Positions 1 through 14,032 of a stretch of DNA of 14,032 nucleotides are shown in pieces. Within the stretch, counting starts at the first letter, position 1; the number at the start of each line of letters is the position of its first letter. The stretch is from a virus (lineage: Duplodnaviria; Heunggongvirae; Uroviricota; Caudoviricetes). Both the position numbers and the translations under genes were made by a program. Under the pieces are notes generated by a model. That model did not search any database. It saw nothing but the letters and a program-made list of their open reading frames with translations, and was not told where the DNA came from. Location: IMG/VR virus record IMGVR_UViG_2671180724_000001; one strand, 5' to 3'.

Positions 1-1
1 C

Positions 2-682
2 AACGGCAAGGGTGATGCTTATGCAAACCCGTTGTCAGACGATGACTGGCAGCGACTGGCTAAGGTGAAGGATCTGACGCCGGGCGAGATGACCGCTGAG
101 TCCTATGACGACAGCTATCTCGATGATGAAGATGCAGACTGGACCGCGACCGGGCAGGGGCAGAAATCTGCCGGAGATACCAGCTTCACGCTGGCGTGGA
201 TGCCCGGAGAGCAGGGGCAGCAGGCGCTGCTGGCGTGGTTTAATGAAGGCGATACCCGTGCCTATAAAATCCGCTTCCCGAACGGCACGGTCGATGTGTT
301 CCGTGGCTGGGTCAGCAGTATCGGTAAGGCGGTGACGGCGAAGGAAGTGATCACCCGCACGGTGAAAGTCACCAATGTGGGACGTCCGTCGATGGCAGAA
401 GATCGCAGCACGGTAACAGCGGCAACCGGCATGACCGTGACGCCAGCCAGCGCTTCCGTAGTGAAAGGGAAGAGCACCACGCTGACCGTGGCCTTCCAGC
501 CGGAAGGCGCAACCGACAAGAGCTTCCGTGCGGTGTCAGCGGATAAAACAAAAGCCACCGTGTCGGTCAGTGGTATGACCATCACCGTGAATGGCGTTGC
601 TGCAGGTAAGGTCAACATTCCGGTCGTATCCGGTAATGGTGAGTTTGCTGCGGTTGCAGAAATCACCGTCACCGCCAGTTAA
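2..682 (+). CDS. V: Major tail tube protein V, C-terminal ~226 codons (5' end lies outside the window); C-terminal Ig-like domain
   Basis: Reading frame is open from position 2 and translates to [29 protein letters not shown]...AEITVTAS, which I recognise as lambda gpV. TAA stop at 680-682. The track ORF 32..682 is the same frame begun at an internal TTG. Confidence 0.9.
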
Positions 683-697
683 TCCGGAGAGTCAGAG

Positions 698-1120
698 ATG
701 TTCCTGAAAACCGAATCATTTGAACATAACGGTGTGACCGTCACGCTTTCTGAACTGTCAGCCCTGCAGCGTATTGAGCATCTCGCCCTGATGAAACGGC
801 AGGCAGAACAGGCGGAGTCAGACAGCAATCGGAAGTTTACTGTGGAAGACGCCATCAGAACCGGCGCGTTTCTGGTGGCGATGTCCCTGTGGCATAACCA
901 TCCGCAGAAGACGCAGATGCCGTCCATGAATGAAGCCGTTAAACAAATTGAGCAGGAAGTGCTTACCACCTGGCCCACGGAGGCAATTTCTCATGCTGAA
1001 AACGTGGTGTACCGGCTGTCCGGTATGTATGAGTTTGTGGTGAATAATGCCCCTGAACAGACAGAGGACGCCGGGCCTGCAGAGCCTGTTTCTGCGGGAA
1101 AGTGTTCGACGGTGAGCTGA
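698..1120 (+). CDS. G: Tail assembly chaperone G
   Basis: 140-aa ORF (MFLKTESFEHNGVTVTLSELSALQRIEHLALMKRQAEQ...) matching lambda gpG. GGAGAG Shine-Dalgarno 8 nt upstream of the ATG at 698. Sits directly after V as in lambda. Confidence 0.9.
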   Translation: MFLKTESFEHNGVTVTLSELSALQRIEHLALMKRQAEQAESDSNRKFTVEDAIRTGAFLVAMSLWHNHPQKTQMPSMNEAVKQIEQEVLTTWPTEAISHAENVVYRLSGMYEFVVNNAPEQTEDAGPAEPVSAGKCSTVS

Positions 1121-1536
1121 GTTTTGCCCTGAAACTGGCGCGTGAGATGGGGCGACCCGACTGGCGTGCCATGCTTGCCGGGATGTCATCCACGGAGTAT
1201 GCCGACTGGCACCGCTTTTACAGTACCCATTATTTTCATGATGTTCTGCTGGATATGCACTTTTCCGGGCTGACGTACACCGTGCTCAGCCTGTTTTTCA
1301 GCGATCCGGATATGCATCCGCTGGATTTCAGTCTGCTTAACCGGCGCGAGGCTGACGAAGAGCCTGAAGATGATGTGCTGATGCAGAAAGCGGCAGGGCT
1401 TGCCGGAGGTGTCCGCTTTGGCCCGGACGGGAATGAAGTTATCCCCGCTTCCCCGGATGTGGCGGACATGACGGAGGATGACGTAATGCTGATGACAGTA
1501 TCAGAAGGGATCGCAGGAGGAGTCCGGTATGGCTGA
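698..1536 (+). CDS. T: Tail assembly chaperone G-T fusion, made by -1 frameshift at 1096-1102
   Basis: The T frame (track ORF 1102..1536) has no convincing start or RBS of its own and begins exactly at the slippery site. Its TGA stop at 1534-1536 overlaps the H start at 1529. Confidence 0.8.
1096..1102 (+). other. Programmed -1 ribosomal frameshift slippery heptamer G GGA AAG (G to G-T)
   Basis: GGGAAAG lies in the G frame as G|GGA|AAG, six codons before the G stop. The -1 frame continues as VFDGELSFALKLAREMGRPDW... (gpT) through to 1536. Same heptamer and position as the lambda G/GT frameshift. Confidence 0.8.
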
Positions 1537-4090
1537 ACCGGTAGGCGATCTGGTCGTTGATTTAAGTCTGGATGCGGCCAGATTTGACGAGCAGATGGCC
1601 AGAGTCAGGCGTCATTTTTCCGGTACGGAAACTGATGCGAAAAAAACAGCGGCAGTCGTTGAACAGTCGCTGAGCCGACAGGCGCTGGCTGCACAGAAAG
1701 CGGGGATTTCCGTCGGGCAGTATAAAGCCGCCATGCGTATGCTGCCTGCACAGTTCACCGACGTGGCCACGCAGCTTGCAGGCGGGCAAAGCCCGTGGCT
1801 GATCCTGCTGCAACAGGGTGGTCAGGTTAAGGACTCCTTCGGCGGGATGATCCCCATGTTCCGGGGGCTTGCCGGTGCGATCACCCTGCCGATGGTCGGG
1901 GCCACCTCGCTGGCGGTGGCGACCGGTGCGCTGGCGTATGCCTGGTATCAGGGTAACTCAACCCTGTCCGATTTCAACAAAACGCTGGTCCTTTCCGGTA
2001 ATCAGTCGGGTCTGACGGCAGATCGTATGCTGGTCCTGTCCAGAGCCGGGCAGGCGGCAGGGCTGACGTTTAACCAGACCAGCGAGTCACTCAGTGCACT
2101 GGTTAAGGCGGGGGTAAGCGGTGAGGCTCAGATTGCGTCCATCAGCCAGAGTGTGGCGCGTTTCTCTTCTGCATCCGGTGTGGAGGTGGACAAGGTCGCT
2201 GAAGCCTTCGGGAAGCTGACCACTGACCCGACGTCGGGGCTGACGGCGATGGCGCGCCAGTTCCATAACGTGACGGCGGAGCAGATTGCGTATGTTGCTC
2301 AGTTGCAGCGTTCCGGCGATGAAGCCGGGGCATTGCAGGCGGCGAACGAAGCCGCAACGAAAGGGTTTGATGACCAGACCCGCCGCCTGAAAGAGAACAT
2401 GGGCACGCTGGAGACCTGGGCAGACAGGACAGCGCGGGCATTCAAATCCATGTGGGATGCGGTGCTGGATATTGGTCGTCCTGATACCGCGCAGGAGATG
2501 CTGATTAAGGCAGAGGCTGCGTTTAAGAAAGCAGACGACATCTGGAATCTGCGCAAGGATGACTATTTTGTTAACGATGAAGCGCGGGCGCGTTACTGGG
2601 ATGATCGTGAAAAGACCCGTCTTGCGCTTGAAGCCGCCCGAAAGAAGGCTGAGCAGCAGACTCAACAGGACAAAAATGCGCAGCAGCAGAGCGATACCGA
2701 AGCGTCACGGCTGAAATATACCGAAGAGGCGCAGAAGGCTTACGAACGGCTGCAGACGCCGCTGGAGAAATATACCGCCCGTCAGGAAGAACTGAACAAG
2801 GCACTGAAAGACGGGAAAATCCTGCAGGCGGATTACAACACGCTGATGGCGGCGGCGAAAAAGGATTATGAAGCGACGCTGAAAAAGCCGAAACAGTCCG
2901 GCGTGAAGGTGTCTGCGGGCGATCGTCAGGAAGACAGTGCTCATGCTGCCCTGCTGACGCTTCAGGCAGAACTCCGGACGCTGGAGAAGCATGCCGGAGC
3001 GAATGAGAAAATCAGCCAGCAGCGCCGGGATTTGTGGAAGGCGGAGAGTCAGTTCGCGGTACTGGAGGAGGCGGCGCAACGTCGCCAGCTGTCTGCACAG
3101 GAGAAATCCCTGCTGGCGCATAAAGATGAGACGCTGGAGTACAAACGCCAGCTGGCTGCACTTGGCGACAAGGTTACGTATCAGGAGCGCCTGAACGCGC
3201 TGGCGCAGCAGGCGGATAAATTCGCACAGCAGCAACGGGCAAAACGGGCCGCCATTGATGCGAAAAGCCGGGGGCTGACTGACCGGCAGGCAGAACGGGA
3301 AGCCACGGAACAGCGCCTGAAGGAACAGTATGGCGATAATCCGCTGGCGCTGAATAACGTCATGTCAGAGCAGAAAAAGACCTGGGCGGCTGAAGACCAG
3401 CTTCGCGGGAGCTGGATGGCAGGCCTGAAGTCCGGCTGGAGTGAGTGGGAAGAGAGCGCCACGGACAGTATGTCGCAGGTTAAAAGTGCAGCCACGCAGA
3501 CCTTTGATGGTATTGCACAAAATATGGCGGCGATGCTGACCGGCAGTGAGCAGAACTGGCGCAGCTTCACCCGTTCCGTGCTGTCCATGATGACAGAAAT
3601 TCTGCTTAAGCAGGCAATGGTGGGGATTGTCGGGAGTATCGGCAGCGCCATTGGCGGTGCTGCCAGTGGTGGAGCATCCGCGTCAGGCGGTACAGCCATT
3701 CAGGCCGCTGCGGCGAAATTCCATTTTGCAACCGGAGGATTTACGGGAACCGGCGGCAAATATGAGCCAGCGGGGATTGTTCACCGTGGTGAGTTTGTCT
3801 TCACGAAGGAGGCAACCAGCCGGATTGGCGTGGGGAATCTTTACCGGCTGATGCGCGGCTATGCCACCGGCGGTTATGTCGGTACACCGGGCAGCATGGC
3901 AGACAGCCGGTCGCAGGCGTCCGGGACGTTTGAGCAGAATAACCATGTGGTGATTAACAACGACGGCACGAACGGGCAGATAGGTCCGGCTGCTCTGAAG
4001 GCGGTGTATGACATGGCCCGCAAGGGTGCCCGTGATGAAATTCAGACACAGATGCGTGATGGTGGCCTGTTCTCCGGAGGTGGACGATGA
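1529..4090 (+). CDS. H: Tail tape measure protein H, full length (853 aa)
   Basis: 853-aa ORF, the same length as lambda gpH. Has the alpha-helical, Q/A/E/K/R-rich central region, a Gly-rich hydrophobic segment (GSIGSAIGGAASGGASASGG) and the C-terminal ...GGFTGTGGKYEPAGIVHRGEFVF... motif. Start overlaps the T stop. Confidence 0.95.
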   Translation: MAEPVGDLVVDLSLDAARFDEQMARVRRHFSGTETDAKKTAAVVEQSLSRQALAAQKAGISVGQYKAAMRMLPAQFTDVATQLAGGQSPWLILLQQGGQVKDSFGGMIPMFRGLAGAITLPMVGATSLAVATGALAYAWYQGNSTLSDFNKTLVLSGNQSGLTADRMLVLSRAGQAAGLTFNQTSESLSALVKAGVSGEAQIASISQSVARFSSASGVEVDKVAEAFGKLTTDPTSGLTAMARQFHNVTAEQIAYVAQLQRSGDEAGALQAANEAATKGFDDQTRRLKENMGTLETWADRTARAFKSMWDAVLDIGRPDTAQEMLIKAEAAFKKADDIWNLRKDDYFVNDEARARYWDDREKTRLALEAARKKAEQQTQQDKNAQQQSDTEASRLKYTEEAQKAYERLQTPLEKYTARQEELNKALKDGKILQADYNTLMAAAKKDYEATLKKPKQSGVKVSAGDRQEDSAHAALLTLQAELRTLEKHAGANEKISQQRRDLWKAESQFAVLEEAAQRRQLSAQEKSLLAHKDETLEYKRQLAALGDKVTYQERLNALAQQADKFAQQQRAKRAAIDAKSRGLTDRQAEREATEQRLKEQYGDNPLALNNVMSEQKKTWAAEDQLRGSWMAGLKSGWSEWEESATDSMSQVKSAATQTFDGIAQNMAAMLTGSEQNWRSFTRSVLSMMTEILLKQAMVGIVGSIGSAIGGAASGGASASGGTAIQAAAAKFHFATGGFTGTGGKYEPAGIVHRGEFVFTKEATSRIGVGNLYRLMRGYATGGYVGTPGSMADSRSQASGTFEQNNHVVINNDGTNGQIGPAALKAVYDMARKGARDEIQTQMRDGGLFSGGGR

Positions 4091-4577
4091 AGACCTTCCG
4101 CTGGAAAGTGAAACCCGGTATGGATGTGGCTTCGGTCCCTTCTGTAAGAAAGGTGCGCTTTGGTGATGGCTATTCTCAGCGAGCGCCTGCCGGGCTGAAT
4201 GCCAACCTGAAAACGTACAGCGTGACGCTTTCTGTCCCCCGTGAGGAGGCCACGGTACTGGAGTCGTTTCTGGAAGAGCACGGGGGCTGGAAATCCTTTC
4301 TGTGGACGCCGCCTTATGAGTGGCGGCAGATAAAGGTGACCTGCGCAAAATGGTCGTCGCGGGTCAGTATGTTGCGTGTTGAGTTCAGCGCAGAGTTTGA
4401 ACAGGTGGTGAACTGATGCAGGATATCCGGCAGGAAACACTGAATGAATGCACCCGTGCGGAGCAGTCGGCCAGCGTGGTGCTCTGGGAAATCGACCTGA
4501 CAGAGGTCGGTGGAGAACGTTATTTTTTCTGTAATGAGCAGAACGAAAAAGGTGAGCCGGTCACCTGGCAGGGGCGA
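1799..4577 (+). repeat. Tandem direct repeat, copy 1 (3' part of H, M, first 54 codons of L)
   Basis: Colinear with 4578..7367 by direct comparison of sequence and translations. The last 676 bp (3902-4577) are identical to 6692-7367; upstream is diverged. Confidence 0.85.
4087..4416 (+). CDS. M: Minor tail protein M (copy 1)
   Basis: 109-aa ORF (MKTFRWKVKPGMDVASVPSVRKVRFGDGYSQRAP...), the same length as lambda gpM. ATGA overlap with the H stop at 4087-4090. Confidence 0.9.
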   Translation: MKTFRWKVKPGMDVASVPSVRKVRFGDGYSQRAPAGLNANLKTYSVTLSVPREEATVLESFLEEHGGWKSFLWTPPYEWRQIKVTCAKWSSRVSMLRVEFSAEFEQVVN

Positions 4578-4580
4578 TGA
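4416..4580 (+). pseudogene. Truncated minor tail protein L fragment (first 54 codons, then stop) at the duplication junction
   Basis: Nucleotides 4416-4577 are identical to 7206-7367, the start of the intact L gene (MQDIRQETLNECTRAEQSASVVLWEIDLTEVGGERYFFCNEQNEKGEPVTWQGR). After codon 54 the sequence switches to H-derived sequence and the frame ends at TGA 4578-4580. Confidence 0.8.
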
Positions 4581-6880
4581 TCCTGCTGCAACAGGGCGGT
4601 CAGGTGAAGGACTCCTTCGGCGGGATGATCCCCATGTTCAGGGGGCTTGCCGGTGCGATCACCCTGCCGATGGTCGGGGTCACCTCGCTGGCGGTGGCGA
4701 CAGGTGCGCTGGCGTACGCCTGGTACCAGGGCGACGCCACGCTTTCAGAATTTAATAAAACGCTGGTCCTTTCCGGCAATCAGGCCGGACTGACTGCCGA
4801 TCGTATGCTGACGCTCTCAAGAGCCGGGCAGGCAGCAGGGCTGACGTTTAACCAGGCGAGAGAGTCACTGGCAGCCCTGGTGAATGCCGGTGTGCGTGGT
4901 GGTGAACAGTTTGATGCCATCAACCAGAGTGTCGCGCGTTTTGCGTCTGCATCCGGTGTGGAGGTGGATAAAGTCGCTGAAGCCTTCGGGAAGCTGACCA
5001 CTGACCCGACGTCGGGACTGATGGCGATGGCGCGCCAGTTCCGTAACGTGACGGCAGAGCAGATTGCGTATGTTGCACAGCTGCAGCGTTCCGGAGACGA
5101 GGCCGGGGCATTGCAGGCGGCGAACGATATCGCCACGAAAGGCTTTGATGAGCAGACCCGTCGCCTGAAAGAAAACATGGGAACACTGGAGACCTGGGCG
5201 GATAAAACAGGGAAGGCATTCAAATCGATGTGGGATGCCATTCTGGATATCGGTCGTCCGGAATCCTCAGCGGATATGCTCGCCAGTGCGCAGAAGGCAT
5301 TTGATGAGGCGGATAAAAAATGGCAGTGGTACCAGAGCCGGAGCCAGCGCCGGGGAAAGACCTCCTCTTTTCGTGCGAACCTTCAGGGGGCATGGGATGA
5401 CCGGGAAAATGCCCGTCTGGGTCTGGCAGCGGCCACGCTGCAGTCGGATATGGAAAAAGCCGGTGAACTGGCGGCAAGGGACAGGGCTGAGCGTGAGTCG
5501 TCACAGCTGAAGTATACCGGAGAGGCGCAGAAGGCGTATGAGCGCCTGCAGACGCCGCTGGATAAATATACCGCCCGTCAGAAAGAGCTGAATAAGGCCC
5601 TGAAAGACGGAAAAATCCTGCAGGCGGATTACAACACGCTGATGGCGTCGGCAAAAAAGGATTATGAATCGACGCTGAAAAAGCCGTCAGGTGTGAAGGT
5701 GTCTGCCGGTGAGCGCCAGGAAGACCGGGCGCATGCAGCCCTGCTGGCGCTTGAAACCGAGCTCAGGACGCTGGAAAAACACAGCGGTGTGAATGAGAAA
5801 ATCAGCCAGCAGCGCCGGGATTTATGGGAAGCGGAAAGTCAGTATGTGGTCCTGAAAGAGGCCGCCACGAAACGGCAGTTATCTGAGCAGGAAAAATCCC
5901 TGCTGGCTCATGAGAAAGAGACGCTGGAGTACAAACGCCAGCTGGCTGAGCTGGGAGACAAGATTGAACACCAGAAGCGGCTGAATGAGCTGGCACAGCA
6001 GGCGGCGCGGTTTGAACAGCAGCAAAGCGCGAAGCAGGCGGCAATCAGCGCAAAAGCCCGCGGCCTCACCGACCGTCAGGCGCAGCGGGAGTCGGAAGAG
6101 CAGCGCCTTCGTGAGGTGTACGGTGATAATCCGGCTGCGCTGGCGAAGGCCACATCGGCACTGAAGAACACCTGGTCTGCGGAGGAGCAGCTTCGTGGAA
6201 GCTGGATGGCCGGGATGAAGTCCGGCTGGGGAGAGTGGGCGGAAAGTGCGACGGACAGTTTTTCGCAGGTTAAAAGTGTGGCCACGCAGACCTTTGACGG
6301 TATTGCACAGAATATGGCGGCGATGCTGACCGGCAGCGAACAGAACTGGCGGGGATTCACCCGTTCCGTGCTGTCCATGATGACAGAAATTCTGCTTAAG
6401 CAGGCAATGGTGGGGATTGTCGGGAGTATCGGCAGCGCCATTGGCGGGGCTGTTGGTGGCGGCGCATCCGCGTCAGGCGGTACAGCCATTCAGGCCGCTG
6501 CGGCGAAATTCCATTTTGCAACCGGAGGATTTACGGGAACCGGCGGCAAATATGAGCCAGCGGGGATTGTTCACCGTGGTGAATTTGTCTTCACAAAGGA
6601 GGCAACCAGCCGGATTGGCGTGGGGAATCTCTACCGGCTGATGCGCGGCTATGCCACCGGTGGTTATGTCGGTACACCGGGCAGTCTGGCTGACAGCCGG
6701 TCGCAGGCGTCCGGGACGTTTGAGCAGAATAACCATGTGGTGATTAACAACGACGGCACGAACGGGCAGATAGGTCCGGCTGCTCTGAAGGCGGTGTATG
6801 ACATGGCCCGCAAGGGTGCCCGTGATGAAATTCAGACACAGATGCGTGATGGTGGCCTGTTCTCCGGAGGTGGACGATGA
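4577..6880 (+). CDS. Second tape-measure gene H' (767 aa): N-terminally truncated, diverged paralogue of H
   Basis: ORF begins MILLQQGGQVKDSFGGMIPMFRGLAGAITLPMVG..., which aligns to H from residue 91 onward (H has ...WLILLQQGGQVKDSF...). The ATG at 4577 is created at the junction, where H has CTG. The C-terminal ~220 aa are nearly identical to H; the middle is diverged. It is unproven whether this gene is expressed or functional. Confidence 0.7.
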   Translation: MILLQQGGQVKDSFGGMIPMFRGLAGAITLPMVGVTSLAVATGALAYAWYQGDATLSEFNKTLVLSGNQAGLTADRMLTLSRAGQAAGLTFNQARESLAALVNAGVRGGEQFDAINQSVARFASASGVEVDKVAEAFGKLTTDPTSGLMAMARQFRNVTAEQIAYVAQLQRSGDEAGALQAANDIATKGFDEQTRRLKENMGTLETWADKTGKAFKSMWDAILDIGRPESSADMLASAQKAFDEADKKWQWYQSRSQRRGKTSSFRANLQGAWDDRENARLGLAAATLQSDMEKAGELAARDRAERESSQLKYTGEAQKAYERLQTPLDKYTARQKELNKALKDGKILQADYNTLMASAKKDYESTLKKPSGVKVSAGERQEDRAHAALLALETELRTLEKHSGVNEKISQQRRDLWEAESQYVVLKEAATKRQLSEQEKSLLAHEKETLEYKRQLAELGDKIEHQKRLNELAQQAARFEQQQSAKQAAISAKARGLTDRQAQRESEEQRLREVYGDNPAALAKATSALKNTWSAEEQLRGSWMAGMKSGWGEWAESATDSFSQVKSVATQTFDGIAQNMAAMLTGSEQNWRGFTRSVLSMMTEILLKQAMVGIVGSIGSAIGGAVGGGASASGGTAIQAAAAKFHFATGGFTGTGGKYEPAGIVHRGEFVFTKEATSRIGVGNLYRLMRGYATGGYVGTPGSLADSRSQASGTFEQNNHVVINNDGTNGQIGPAALKAVYDMARKGARDEIQTQMRDGGLFSGGGR

Positions 6881-7367
6881 AGACCTTCCGCTGGAAAGTG
6901 AAACCCGGTATGGATGTGGCTTCGGTCCCTTCTGTAAGAAAGGTGCGCTTTGGTGATGGCTATTCTCAGCGAGCGCCTGCCGGGCTGAATGCCAACCTGA
7001 AAACGTACAGCGTGACGCTTTCTGTCCCCCGTGAGGAGGCCACGGTACTGGAGTCGTTTCTGGAAGAGCACGGGGGCTGGAAATCCTTTCTGTGGACGCC
7101 GCCTTATGAGTGGCGGCAGATAAAGGTGACCTGCGCAAAATGGTCGTCGCGGGTCAGTATGTTGCGTGTTGAGTTCAGCGCAGAGTTTGAACAGGTGGTG
7201 AACTGATGCAGGATATCCGGCAGGAAACACTGAATGAATGCACCCGTGCGGAGCAGTCGGCCAGCGTGGTGCTCTGGGAAATCGACCTGACAGAGGTCGG
7301 TGGAGAACGTTATTTTTTCTGTAATGAGCAGAACGAAAAAGGTGAGCCGGTCACCTGGCAGGGGCGA
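4578..7367 (+). repeat. Tandem direct repeat, copy 2 (H', M, start of the intact L)
   Basis: As copy 1. This copy is about 12 bp longer because of indels in the tape-measure central region. Confidence 0.85.
6877..7206 (+). CDS. M: Minor tail protein M (copy 2)
   Basis: 109-aa ORF with translation identical to copy 1 at 4087..4416; nucleotide sequence identical by eye. Confidence 0.9.
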   Translation: MKTFRWKVKPGMDVASVPSVRKVRFGDGYSQRAPAGLNANLKTYSVTLSVPREEATVLESFLEEHGGWKSFLWTPPYEWRQIKVTCAKWSSRVSMLRVEFSAEFEQVVN

Positions 7368-7904
7368 CAGTATCAGCCGTATCCCATTCAGGGGAGCGGT
7401 TTTGAACTGAATGGCAAAGGCACCAGTACGCGCCCCACGCTGACGGTTTCTAACCTGTACGGTATGGTCACCGGGATGGCGGAAGATCTGCAGAGTCTGG
7501 TCGGCGGAACGGTGGTCCGGCGTAAGGTTTACGCCCGTTTTCTGGATGCGGTGAACTTCGTCAACGGAAACAGTTACGCCGATCCGGAGCAGGAGGTGAT
7601 CAGCCGCTGGCGCATTGAGCAGTGCAGCGAACTGAGCGCGGTGAGTGCCTCCTTTGTACTGTCCACGCCGACGGAAACGGATGGCGCTGTTTTTCCGGGA
7701 CGTATCATGCTGGCCAACACCTGCACCTGGACCTATCGCGGTGACGAGTGCGGTTATAGCGGTCCGGCTGTCGCGGATGAATATGACCAGCCAACGTCCG
7801 ATATCACGAAGGATAAATGCAGCAAATGCCTGAGCGGTTGTAAGTTCCGCAATAACGTCGGCAACTTTGGCGGCTTCCTTTCCATTAACAAACTTTCGCA
7901 GTAA
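7206..7904 (+). CDS. L: Minor tail protein L
   Basis: 232-aa ORF, the same length as lambda gpL. Starts with an ATGA overlap on the M stop and contains the Cys cluster (CTWTYRGDECGY...CSKCLSGC) I associate with gpL. Confidence 0.9.
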   Translation: MQDIRQETLNECTRAEQSASVVLWEIDLTEVGGERYFFCNEQNEKGEPVTWQGRQYQPYPIQGSGFELNGKGTSTRPTLTVSNLYGMVTGMAEDLQSLVGGTVVRRKVYARFLDAVNFVNGNSYADPEQEVISRWRIEQCSELSAVSASFVLSTPTETDGAVFPGRIMLANTCTWTYRGDECGYSGPAVADEYDQPTSDITKDKCSKCLSGCKFRNNVGNFGGFLSINKLSQ

Positions 7905-7909
7905 ATCCC

Positions 7910-8653
7910 ATGACACAGACAGAATCAGCGATTCTGGCGCACGCCCGGCGATGTGCGCCAGCGGAGTCGTGCGGCTTCGTGGTAAGCACGCCGGAGGGGG
8001 AAAGATATTTTCCCTGCGTGAATATCTCCGGTGAGCCGGAGGCGTATTTCCGTATGTCGCCGGAAGACTGGCTGCAGGCAGAGATGCAGGGTGAGATTGT
8101 GGCGCTGGTCCACAGCCACCCCGGTGGTCTGCCCTGGCTGAGTGAGGCCGACCGGCGGCTGCAGGTGCAGAGTGATTTGCCGTGGTGGCTGGTCTGCCGG
8201 GGGACGATTCATAAGTTCCGCTGTGTGCCGCATCTCACCGGGCGGCGCTTTGAGCACGGGGTGACGGACTGTTACACACTGTTCCGGGATGCTTATCATC
8301 TGGCGGGGATTGAGATGCCGGACTTTCATCGTGAGGATGACTGGTGGCGTAACGGCCAGAATCTCTATCTGGATAATCTGGAGGCGACGGGGCTGTATCA
8401 GGTGCCGTTGTCAGCGGCACAGCCGGGCGATGTGCTGCTGTGCTGTTTTGGTTCATCAGTGCCGAATCACGCCGCCATTTACTGCGGCGACGGCGAGCTG
8501 CTGCACCATATTCCTGAACAACTGAGCAAACGAGAGAGGTATACAGACAAATGGCAGCGACGCACACACTCCCTCTGGCGTCACCGGGCATGGCGCGCAT
8601 CTGCCTTTACGGGGATTTACAACGATTTGGTCGCCGCATCGACCTTCGTGTGA
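7910..8653 (+). CDS. K: Tail tip assembly protein K, with JAMM/MPN metalloprotease-like motif and NlpC/P60-like Cys/His region
   Basis: ORF starts 6 nt after the L stop. Contains HSHPGGLPWLSEAD (H-x-H-x7-S-x2-D, a JAMM signature) and a downstream Cys...His region (GVTDCYTLF...NHAAIYCG). The exact in-vivo start and end are uncertain; the 3' end overlaps I. Confidence 0.85.
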   Translation: MTQTESAILAHARRCAPAESCGFVVSTPEGERYFPCVNISGEPEAYFRMSPEDWLQAEMQGEIVALVHSHPGGLPWLSEADRRLQVQSDLPWWLVCRGTIHKFRCVPHLTGRRFEHGVTDCYTLFRDAYHLAGIEMPDFHREDDWWRNGQNLYLDNLEATGLYQVPLSAAQPGDVLLCCFGSSVPNHAAIYCGDGELLHHIPEQLSKRERYTDKWQRRTHSLWRHRAWRASAFTGIYNDLVAASTFV

Positions 8654-9222
8654 AAACGGGGGCTGAAGCCATCCGGGCACTGGCCACACAGCTCCCGGCG
8701 TTTCGTCAGAAACTGAGCGACGGCTGGTATCAGGTACGGATTGCCGGGCGGGACGTCAGCACGTCCGGGTTAACGGCGCAGTTACATGAGACTCTGCCTG
8801 ATGGCGCTGTGATTCATATTGTTCCCAGAGTCGCCGGGGCCAAGTCAGGTGGCGTATTCCAGATTGTCCTGGGGGCTGCCGCCATTGCCGGATCATTCTT
8901 TACCGCCGGAGCCACCCTTGCAGCATGGGGGGCAGCCATTGGGGCCGGTAGTATGACCGGCATCCTGTTTTCTCTCGGTGCCAGTATGGTGCTCGGTGGT
9001 GTGGCGCAGATGCTGGCACCGAAAGCCAGAACTCCCCGTACACAGACAACGGATAACGGTAAGCAGAACACCTATTTCTCCTCACTGGATAACATGGTTG
9101 CCCAGGGCAATGTTCTGCCTGTTCTGTACGGGGAAATGCGCGTGGGGTCACGCGTGGTTTCTCAGGAGATCAGCACGGCAGACGAAGGGGACGGTGGTCA
9201 GGTTGTGGTGATTGGTCGCTGA
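8551..9222 (+). CDS. I: Tail tip assembly protein I
   Basis: 223-aa ORF, the same length as lambda gpI, with a Gly/Ala-rich hydrophobic centre. Overlaps the 3' end of K in another frame, as in lambda. Confidence 0.9.
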   Translation: MAATHTLPLASPGMARICLYGDLQRFGRRIDLRVKTGAEAIRALATQLPAFRQKLSDGWYQVRIAGRDVSTSGLTAQLHETLPDGAVIHIVPRVAGAKSGGVFQIVLGAAAIAGSFFTAGATLAAWGAAIGAGSMTGILFSLGASMVLGGVAQMLAPKARTPRTQTTDNGKQNTYFSSLDNMVAQGNVLPVLYGEMRVGSRVVSQEISTADEGDGGQVVVIGR

Positions 9223-9240
9223 TGCAAAATGTTTTATGTG

Positions 9241-9270
9241 AAACCGCCTGCGGGCGGTTTTATCGTTTAT
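9241..9270 (+). terminator. Intercistronic stem-loop with U-rich tail between I and J (possible attenuator or weak intrinsic terminator)
   Basis: AAACCGCC (9241-9248), loop TGCG, GGCGGTTT (9253-9260): a perfect 8-bp inverted repeat, followed by TATCGTTTAT. Lies 19 nt after the I stop and 13 nt before the J RBS (GGAG 9271-9274). Confidence 0.4.
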
Positions 9271-9282
9271 GGAGCATGACGA

Positions 9283-9975
9283 ATGGGTAAAGGCAGCAGT
9301 AAGGGGCATACCCCGCGCGAAGCGAAGGACAACCTGAAGTCCACGCAGCTGCTGAGTGTGATCGATGCCATCAGCGAAGGGCCGGTTGAAGGTCCGGTGG
9401 ATGGATTAAAAAGCGTGCTGCTGAACAGTACGCCGGTGCTGGACACTGAGGGGAATACCAATATATCCGGCGTCACGGTGGTGTTCCGGGCCGGTGAGCA
9501 GGAGCAGACACCGCCGGAGGGATTTGAATCCTCCGGCTCCGAGACGGTGCTCGGTACAGAAGTGAAATATGACACGCCGATCACCCGGACCATCACGTCG
9601 GCAAACATTGACCGTCTGCGTTTTACTTTCGGCGTGCAGGCACTGGTGGAAACCACCTCAAAGGGGGACAGGAATCCATCGGAAGTCCGCCTGCTGGTTC
9701 AGATACAACGTAACGGTGGCTGGGTGACGGAAAAAGACATCACCATTAAGGGCAAAACCACCTCGCAGTATCTGGCCTCGGTGGTGGTGGGTAACCTGCC
9801 GCCGCGCCCGTTCAATATCCGGATGCGCAGGATGACGCCGGACAGCACCACAGACCAGCTGCAGAACAAAACGCTCTGGTCGTCATACACCGAAATCATC
9901 GATGTGAAACAGTGCTACCCGAACACGGCACTGGTCGGCGTGCAGGTGGATTCGGAGCAGTTCGGCAGCCAGTAG
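9283..9975 (+). CDS. J: J N-terminal fragment (230 aa) upstream of the amber stop
   Basis: ATG at 9283 with GGAG RBS; ends at TAG 9973-9975. Confidence 0.6.
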   Translation: MGKGSSKGHTPREAKDNLKSTQLLSVIDAISEGPVEGPVDGLKSVLLNSTPVLDTEGNTNISGVTVVFRAGEQEQTPPEGFESSGSETVLGTEVKYDTPITRTITSANIDRLRFTFGVQALVETTSKGDRNPSEVRLLVQIQRNGGWVTEKDITIKGKTTSQYLASVVVGNLPPRPFNIRMRRMTPDSTTDQLQNKTLWSSYTEIIDVKQCYPNTALVGVQVDSEQFGSQ

Positions 9976-12681
<2,706 letters not shown>

Positions 12682-12697
12682 ATTTTATAACCCATAT

Positions 12698-12724
12698 ACG
12701 GGCGCCAGAAATGACGCCTTTTTT
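12698..12724 (+). terminator. Weak putative intrinsic terminator between J and lom
   Basis: Short GC stem (GGCG 12701-12704 pairing with CGCC 12715-12718, plus a possible G-U pair) followed by T6 (12719-12724). The stem is short, so this is low confidence. Confidence 0.3.
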
Positions 12725-12748
12725 ATTGCAGAAAAGCGAGAGGTAATT

Positions 12749-13348
12749 ATGCGTAAACTTTATGCCGCCATTTTGTCCGCAGCCATTTGTCTGGCCGTAT
12801 CCGGTGCGTCTGCATGGGCGTCTGAACATCAGTCCACGCTGAGCGCGGGCTATCTTCATGCCTCGACGAACGTTTCCGGCAGCGATGATCTGAACGGGAT
12901 TAACGTGAAATACCGTTATGAGTTTACGGACACGCTGGGAATGGTGACGTCATTCAGCTATGCAGGAGACAAGAATCGCCAGCTTACCCGTTACAGCGAT
13001 ACCCGCTGGCATGAAGATTCCGTGCGTAACCGCTGGTTCAGCGTAATGGCGGGGCCGTCTGTGCGCGTGAATGAATGGTTCAGCGCGTATGCGATGGCGG
13101 GTGTGGCTTACAGCCGTGTGTCGACTTTCTCCGGGGATTATCTCCGCGTAATTGACAACAAGGGGAAAACGCACGACGTGCTGACCGGAAGTGATGACGG
13201 TCGCCACAGCAACACGTCTCTGGCGTGGGGAGCTGGCGTGCAGTTTAACCCGACCGAATCCGTGGCCATTGATATTGCTTATGAAGGCTCCGGCAGTGGT
13301 GACTGGCGCACTGACGGTTTCATCGTGGGTGTCGGTTATAAATTCTGA
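12749..13348 (+). CDS. lom: Lom-like outer-membrane beta-barrel protein (Ail/Lom/PagC family), a moron gene
   Basis: 199-aa ORF with a signal peptide ([24 protein letters not shown]), alternating amphipathic strands and a C-terminal ...VGVGYKF aromatic end typical of OMP barrels. GAGAGG RBS 6 nt upstream. Sits between J and stf as lambda lom does. AT-richer than the tail genes. Confidence 0.9.
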
Positions 13349-13374
13349 TTAGCCAGGTAACACAGTGTTATGAC

Positions 13375-13402
13375 AGCCCGCCGGTTCAGGCGGGCTTTTT
13401 TG
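13375..13402 (+). terminator. Rho-independent terminator downstream of lom
   Basis: AGCCCGCC (13375-13382), loop GGTTCA, GGCGGGCT (13389-13396), then a T run (TTTTTT) to 13402: an 8-bp GC-rich stem with a U tract. Confidence 0.8.
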
Positions 13403-13412
13403 TGGGGTGAAT

Positions 13413-14032
13413 ATGGCAGTAAAGATTTCAGGTGTACTGAAAGACGGCACAGGAAAACCGGTACAGAACTGCACAATCCAGCTGAAAGCAAAACGTAACA
13501 GCACCACGGTGGTGGTGAACACGCTGGCCTCAGAAAATCCGGATGAAGCCGGGCGTTACAGCATGGACGTTGAGTACGGTCAGTACAGCGTTATTCTGTT
13601 GGTGGAAGGATTCCCGCCGTCACATGCTGGGACCATCACCGTGTATGAAGATTCCCGACCCGGTACGCTGAATGATTTTCTCGGAGCCATGTCGGAGGAT
13701 GACGTCCGGCCGGAGGCACTGCGCCGTTTTGAACTGATGGTGGAAGAGGTGGCGCGTCACGCTGAGGAGGCGAAGAAGAATGCCGGAGAGGCGGAGACGT
13801 CAGCGAGGAATGCCGGCATATCAGCCAGTCAGGCAGAAGAGAGCGCTGCAAATGCTGACACTTCAGCAGGGGAGGCATCGGAGTCAGCCCGGCAGGCGGC
13901 AGAAAGTGCAGCCTCAGCAAAGCAGTCAGAGGATGCGTCCTCGTCCTCGGCTTCTGCGGCCGCTCAAAAAGCCAGTGAGTCATCACAAAGTGCAGCAGAA
14001 GCTGAATTGTCAAGAAAGACGGCAGAAAGTGC
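13413..14032 (+). CDS. stf: Side tail fibre protein Stf, N-terminal part (3' end lies outside the window)
   Basis: ATG at 13413 preceded by GGGGTGA. Translation MAVKISGVLKDGTGKPVQNCTIQLKAKRNSTTVVVNTLASENPDEAGRYSMDVEYGQYSV... matches the lambda Stf N-terminus as I recall it, followed by an Ala/Ser/Glu-rich low-complexity shaft. The frame is open to the window end, which is why the stop-delimited ORF track omits it. Confidence 0.85.
   Translation, partial: MAVKISGVLKDGTGKPVQNCTIQLKAKRNSTTVVVNTLASENPDEAGRYSMDVEYGQYSVILLVEGFPPSHAGTITVYEDSRPGTLNDFLGAMSEDDVRPEALRRFELMVEEVARHAEEAKKNAGEAETSARNAGISASQAEESAANADTSAGEASESARQAAESAASAKQSEDASSSSASAAAQKASESSQSAAEAELSRKTAES

Follow-up and report, generated by a model that had tools for sequence, protein, structure and literature searches.

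The window, by which we mean the whole stretch of 14,032 nucleotides analysed here, is filled by a tail module of the lambda type, whose ORFs and Pfam domains read V (partial), G, T, H, M, L', H' (cut at its 5' end), M, L, K, I, J, lom and stf (partial), with all features on the + strand. In the left part of the window the lambda coordinate is the window coordinate plus 9013, and the order, sizes and sequence of the genes match those of the lambdoid series V-G-T-H-M-L-K-I-J. The first tape-measure gene, H (1529–4090, 853 aa; allele A in what follows), is full length and agrees with lambda gpH in every respect, having the TMP_2 and Tape_meas_lam_C domains, a length of about 850 aa and G/T and M/L as its neighbours. 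It is 98–100% identical to the H of phage lambda, as is the H-M-L of the first copy as a whole, in which H is followed by M (4087–4416, 109 aa, by ORF and Pfam) and by L', the first 161 nucleotides of L (4416–4576, ~54 codons).

Beyond L' the module begins again from within a tape-measure gene. An H-like ORF that ends at 6880 carries TMP_2 and Tape_meas_lam_C and, in the public record CYAJ01000046.1, is without codons 1–90 of H; it is followed by a second M (6877–7206), a complete L (7206–7904, 232 aa), both assigned by ORF and Pfam, and a J gene (9283–12681) with an in-frame TAG at 9973–9975, the same nonsense codon being found in contig CYAC01000053.1. None of the relatives of lambda has a second, N-terminally cut H together with an M between L' and L, and in the window that arrangement rests on one N.

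The preliminary description of this DNA had presented the two copies as a mosaic tandem repeat, identical at the 3' end and diverged in the centre, and this pattern is present in the supplied sequence, far beyond chance, at the coordinates that it had reported. Positions 3902–4577 and 6692–7367 are exactly the same in the supplied window, the match being extendable in neither direction, and just upstream of the first of them 13 substitutions are scattered over 244 bp (3658–3901). When copy 1 (1800–4577), copy 2 (4578–7367) and lambda are aligned three ways and identity is taken per 100 columns, the two copies are 97% identical at the 5' end, pass through 78–95%, 36–49% and 64–92%, and reach 100% at the 3' end, so that the sliding-window profile is not uniform (36–100%). 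The minimum of 36–49% lies at ~2500–2680 of copy 1 and ~5278–5478 of copy 2, and the small indels are an 18-nt insertion and a 6-nt deletion in copy 2 relative to copy 1. At the protein level, allele A and the tape-measure allele from which copy 2 derives (allele B) are 81% identical, with aa ~317–400 barely alignable. To judge from the sequences, the profile is that of an ordinary allelic mosaic of A against B, conserved at both ends and variable in the coiled-coil centre. Mosaicism is general among lambdoid phages, whose tail modules exchange segments freely.

The parentage of each segment can be given. Positions 1–4577 are 100% identical to single-copy prophages in CP145657 and in contigs of GCA_038398065.1, GCA_025277915.1 and GCA_046968765.1, and have one mismatch to CP148374, while 6692–14032 shows 2 mismatches in 7,341 bp to single-copy prophages of the A type (loci L009 and L014). 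Between them lies a part specific to allele B (4578–6691), which over its 2,114 bp matches at 100% the tape-measure gene carried by the prophage of E. coli E7476 and SCPM-O-B-12142 (CP035817, CP144928) and has one mismatch to that of UTI89. From 4578 precisely, the counterpart of nt 272 in the B donor's gene, up to 6855 the window agrees with that donor without a single mismatch, and the first one falls at 6856; from there to 7367 the window differs from B-type relatives at ~30 sites and is instead identical to the A backbone, repeating the 3' end of H, the M and the 5' end of L found at 4066–4577. The 164 bp at 6692–6855 are the same in both parental alleles, and it is within them that the right-hand sequence switches from B to A. 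The perfect block of 676 bp consists of these 164 bp common to both parents and of 511–512 bp of A type written twice, and neither parental part has private substitutions. What had been called a repeat is thus a clean two-parent construct, consisting of A backbone, 2,114 bp of B, 164 bp common to both, and A backbone again.

The proposals that the centre of copy 2 came from a different lambdoid lineage, and that the two copies would match different lineages when searched separately, are both borne out, copy 1 matching the lambda-like backbone and 4578–6855 of copy 2 matching the E7476/UTI89-type gene, each at 100%. In its own genomes the latter allele (WP_000082348.1, 857 aa, matched by the window from its nt 272 onwards) is full length and is followed by M and L of B type, whereas the window departs from it at the ~30 sites from 6856 onwards. 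A block of about 240 nt in allele B (5278–5478) is unrelated to allele A, and the allele, this block included, is a normal full-length gene of viable phages, namely the PhiR12 series (PhiR12_x) and Stx2a phages.

The same comparison bears on a suggestion of the preliminary description, that the 3' end of the repeat had been homogenised by gene conversion. In its general form this reading supposes an older duplication of H-M-L' in prophage A, after which either the centre diverged and the 3' end was converted, or the centre was converted from another phage, and a perfect 3' block beside a diverged centre does superficially resemble a conversion tract. Copy 2, however, shows no difference from an extant B allele over its first bases and onwards, 4578–6855, the lack of private substitutions in either parental part leaves no time for divergence, and the join itself is an N. 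A conversion tract has both of its boundaries inside homology; here the left one lies at the non-homologous join, and it would be forced into the 19 bp between that join and the first difference between A and B. Because of these 19 bp and the absence of private substitutions gene conversion is effectively excluded: the foreign tract starts at the join, each parental part has an exact match among extant alleles, and we regard the probability of an older duplication as practically negligible.

The decisive observation concerns a single base. An exact-protein look-up with a 230-aa fragment of J led to CYAJ01000046.1 (GCA_001285225.1), a 14,032-bp draft contig of which the window is the whole, the sole difference being at 4577, where copy 1 ends and L' meets H': the record has N there, the window A. 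In the deposited record a gap character therefore sits exactly at the join, and the novel junction has no coverage by determined sequence. With an N in this place, no sequence was ever read across the junction, which is a one-N join of two assembled pieces: a left piece (1–4576) that holds the module of a lambda-like prophage, prophage A, from V (partial) through G, T, H and M to the first 161 nt of L, where it stops; a scaffold gap at 4577, which has no strand; and a right piece (4578–14032) that begins at nt 272 of tape-measure allele B and continues through M, L, K, I, J and lom to stf (partial). It also follows that the identical block, at 3902–4576 and again at 6692–7366, holds 675 determined bases and not 676.

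Several features of the window disappear with this base. The ATG at 4577 that opens a 767-aa ORF and the ATGA stop/start overlap are both artefacts, because the N had been replaced by A, and translational coupling of L' to H' through that overlap, which we had considered, is rejected since its A is the replaced N. A look-up of the exact 767-aa product found no record of it, which fits an artificial start codon. Microhomology at the join was looked for and none was found, a point that became moot once the N was discovered. A caution follows for scans of this kind, in that one N turned into A in the scanned window created an apparent junction, a start codon and a stop/start overlap that are absent from the data.

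Both flanks of the gap coincide with positions at which assemblies break, to the base at the right and within 2 nt at the left. On the right, the 766-aa partial product read from 4580 (contig start 4578) is present on 15 contigs of other assemblies, and all seven of the contigs among the matches listed begin at the same base (TGATCCTGCTGC...), nt 272 of the allele-B gene, go on with an M of B type and part from the window at 6856. Among the contigs starting at this nucleotide is CYAM01000025.1, of the same accession series. The submitters' 748-aa annotation of the truncated gene appears under at least four CTS/CTT protein accessions and was counted on 8 contigs. The N-terminal 90 aa that complete the B product are listed for 133 blocks; the contigs in question end at nt 270–272, and among them nt 271 is polymorphic, T or C. 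Such a T/C variant at the very end of contigs is the signature of an assembly graph that forks where two co-resident copies differ. Among the fetched loci we found no third allele to account for the break at nt 271/272. On the left, a 54-aa fragment of L is listed in 481 blocks, and among the matches listed five of six contigs end at L nt 162/163, the sixth having a real TAG at codon 55. The left piece of our contig ends at L nt 161, within 2 nt of this very common contig end, and L nt 160 and 162 differ between A-type and B-type alleles.

With both flanks being recurrent assembly break points, a genuine illegitimate recombination would not be expected to land there, and this, together with the N at 4577, leaves the earlier claim of two adjacent copies in one DNA molecule without confirmation. 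One form of that claim is a real and very recent partial tandem duplication, in which 2,790 bp were inserted into prophage A and the assembler recovered the structure but could not call the junction base; its route would have combined an illegitimate join, between L nt ~162 of prophage A and H nt 272 of a B-type prophage in the same genome, with a homologous crossover within 6692–6855. Such an event would account for the clean two-parent recombinant with its one non-homologous and one homologous boundary, for the presence of the A-type block of M and the 5' end of L in both pieces, and for the scaffolder having placed the pieces side by side and put the gap between them at about 1 base. It would not account for the N in the record, nor for a right breakpoint that serves as contig start in at least 15 other assemblies without the join and a left breakpoint no more than 2 nt from a contig end that hundreds of them show, a double coincidence with assembly break points that is extremely unlikely for a random illegitimate event. 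We consider both the duplication and the proposed route to it very unlikely.

The relatives of the contig point the same way. In the sister assembly GCA_001284205.1, contig CYAC01000053.1 (locus L019) carries H-M-L-K-I-J in single copy, with the same amber codon in J, and when the 2,790-bp insert is removed from the window, the joined remainder (1–4577 and 7368–14032) shows one difference from this contig in 11,242 positions (7488, C against A). Against GCA_038398065.1 (L009) the same construct has two differences, at 7488 and at the amber codon at 9973, so that removal of the join restores a known and common single-copy arrangement. The exact protein of allele A is present in 171 blocks of the collection, and all ten of the places listed have it in a single-copy H-M-L-K. 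Megablast found the junction in none of 5,426 complete E. coli genomes and in none of 50,697 phage records, and searches for the exact pattern, with A or any base at the N, did not find it in GTDB representatives, JGI metagenomes or IMG/VR. A sister isolate one SNP away that has a single copy, and a junction found in no other sequence searched (complete E. coli, phages, GTDB, JGI and IMG/VR), both speak against a real duplication. That the adjacency is real, a cryptic lambda-like prophage with a nonsense codon in J having gained a 2.8-kb segment by one non-homologous join and one 164-bp crossover, is a proposition to which we give slightly less credence still. If it were true, the locus would hold a further tape-measure gene shortened at its N-terminus, along with a perfect direct repeat of 676 bp, and illegitimate recombination between prophages would have been caught in the act, as a modest example of its kind. 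Unless the copies do lie next to each other, there are no grounds for the RecA-mediated instability that had been predicted for this repeat.

We therefore conclude, with a probability of roughly 0.88, that the mosaic tandem repeat is an artefact, a scaffold of two independently assembled short-read pieces joined by one N; as far as the evidence goes, the duplication is almost certainly not a real feature of the genome. The isolate would have two tape-measure alleles of lambdoid type, which most likely reside in two separate prophages or remnants of prophages, with allele A in a lambda-like prophage defective in J and allele B of the UTI89 type. The two alleles would share an identical conserved segment in the 3' part of H, and possibly M and the 5' part of L as well, and this shared segment together with nearby polymorphic sites would break the assembly graph. 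A scaffolding or gap-closing step may then have set the left piece, which stops in L, against the right one, which begins at nt 272 of the allele-B gene, and written a single N between them. Lambdoid tail modules are in any case seldom alone, with a median of 2–3 matching places per genome, and the tail genes of multi-copy lambdoid prophages are a classic site of scaffolding errors.

The join was presumably made by a scaffolder or a gap-filler, and we assume that a pipeline of the SSPACE/GapFiller type stands behind GCA_001285225.1. A published pipeline of this kind, combining Velvet, SSPACE and GapFiller, was described by Page et al. in 2016, who state that its tools are greedy and may join sequences falsely, and that a join appears as N (PMC5320598). 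The contig resembles such false joins of scaffolded short reads (PMC5320598) in having an N at the join, recurrent contig ends by polymorphic sites in multi-copy prophage genes, and a sister assembly without the join.

Some observations fit the scaffold join less comfortably. Support from read pairs would presumably have been needed to order the left piece before the right one, and a model with two prophages does not obviously supply any. The A-type block of M and the 5' part of L, 511 bp past the 164 bp, stands in both pieces, and a plain de Bruijn assembler emits such a block twice only if it is truly present twice in the genome or has been gap-filled. Moreover, the left piece stops 1–2 nt before the commonest contig ends in L and not on them.

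The right piece itself passes from B to A. It may faithfully represent a hybrid prophage that exists in nature, with a B-type tape measure and M-L-K-I-J of A type, so that the 675-bp block would truly be present in two prophages; the left piece would in that case come from the other prophage and continue elsewhere. A repeat common to two copies would stop at a site that varies between alleles, and the left piece does stop just before L nt 162, which is such a site; the free exchange of segments among lambdoid tail modules also makes a hybrid of this sort easy to envisage. Against it, a B-type H joined to A-type M and L was found in no complete E. coli genome at 100% over 6000–7700, the best match being 98.6%, and the sister isolate and complete genomes tie allele A directly to this exact downstream J region. 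A chimeric path would have been equally easy for the assembler, the 164-bp exact repeat being longer than the reads, which we assume to be ~100 nt. Both parts of the hybrid reading, the faithful right piece and the left piece continuing elsewhere, are in our view serious possibilities that fall short of being probable, and the switch from B to A could belong to a natural hybrid prophage private to this strain or could be a chimeric product of assembly across the 164-bp repeat.

What then remains of the locus as biology is expected and well known, one E. coli isolate with two lambdoid tape-measure alleles that have an identical 3' block in common. The likeness to known inter-prophage recombination in E. 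coli lies in the two alleles and their identical segment of at least 164 bp, which is able to support homologous exchange, and strain 472 offers a real deletion of H-M; the difference is that no read-through sequence supports a rearrangement in the window. The record of that strain, CP018245, is the only one that covered both halves of the junction, and we rejected it as a counterpart, as it represents a different event in which H stands before L. The annotation "H (x2)" in phages PhiR70_1 and PhiR49_1 was likewise considered as a natural duplication; for PhiR70_1 this was set aside, one H gene having been annotated there as two CDS.

The UTI89-type tape-measure gene (H allele B), which enters the window at position 4578 with its nt 272, is broken at nt 270–272 in more than 100 independent short-read assemblies (represented by the compared loci L031–L047), and at this shared assembly break nt 271 is polymorphic, being either T or C. 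The recurrence of the break at the same place, together with the T/C polymorphism, points to the presence in many strains of two near-identical copies that differ at nt 271. In phage PhiR70_1 (PV340577; positions 2012–4572 of locus L017) the annotation divides the tape-measure gene into two CDS, one of 90 aa and one of 747 aa, with the split lying near the nt 271 site. The base at which the left and right pieces of the window are joined, 4577, is N in the public record versus A in the window, and any ORF, start codon or junction read from it is therefore artificial.

Two further positions were examined against the sister contig CYAC01000053.1, which has a single-copy H-M-L order and was compared with the window after removal of 4578–7367. 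Across 11,242 bp the sole mismatch is at 7488, which corresponds to nt 283 (codon 95) of the complete L gene (7206–7904); here the window has C (Leu), against A (Met) in all A-type and B-type relatives. Other lambdoid alleles of L, at loci L002, L017, L020–L022 and L024, also have C at nt 283, and the base in the window may be a true SNP or may have been taken into the consensus from a third, co-resident copy of L. At 9973–9975, within the tail gene J (9283–12681), an in-frame TAG replaces the CAG (Gln231) of lambda and all close relatives and splits J into two ORFs of 230 and 901 aa. This is a real nonsense mutation, because the identical codon is present in J of the sister contig, and a functional tail tip is probably beyond the reach of this prophage.

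Altered H and L genes were also seen elsewhere. The complete genome of E. coli strain 472 (CP018245; positions 7730–8323 of locus L002) has a real deletion: its tape-measure gene is cut off after 570 nt, lies almost immediately before L and bears a pseudogene annotation. In UCUV01000002.1 (positions 10001–10699 of locus L024) a TAG at codon 55 of L gives a product of 54 aa, the same as that of the L fragments at contig ends.
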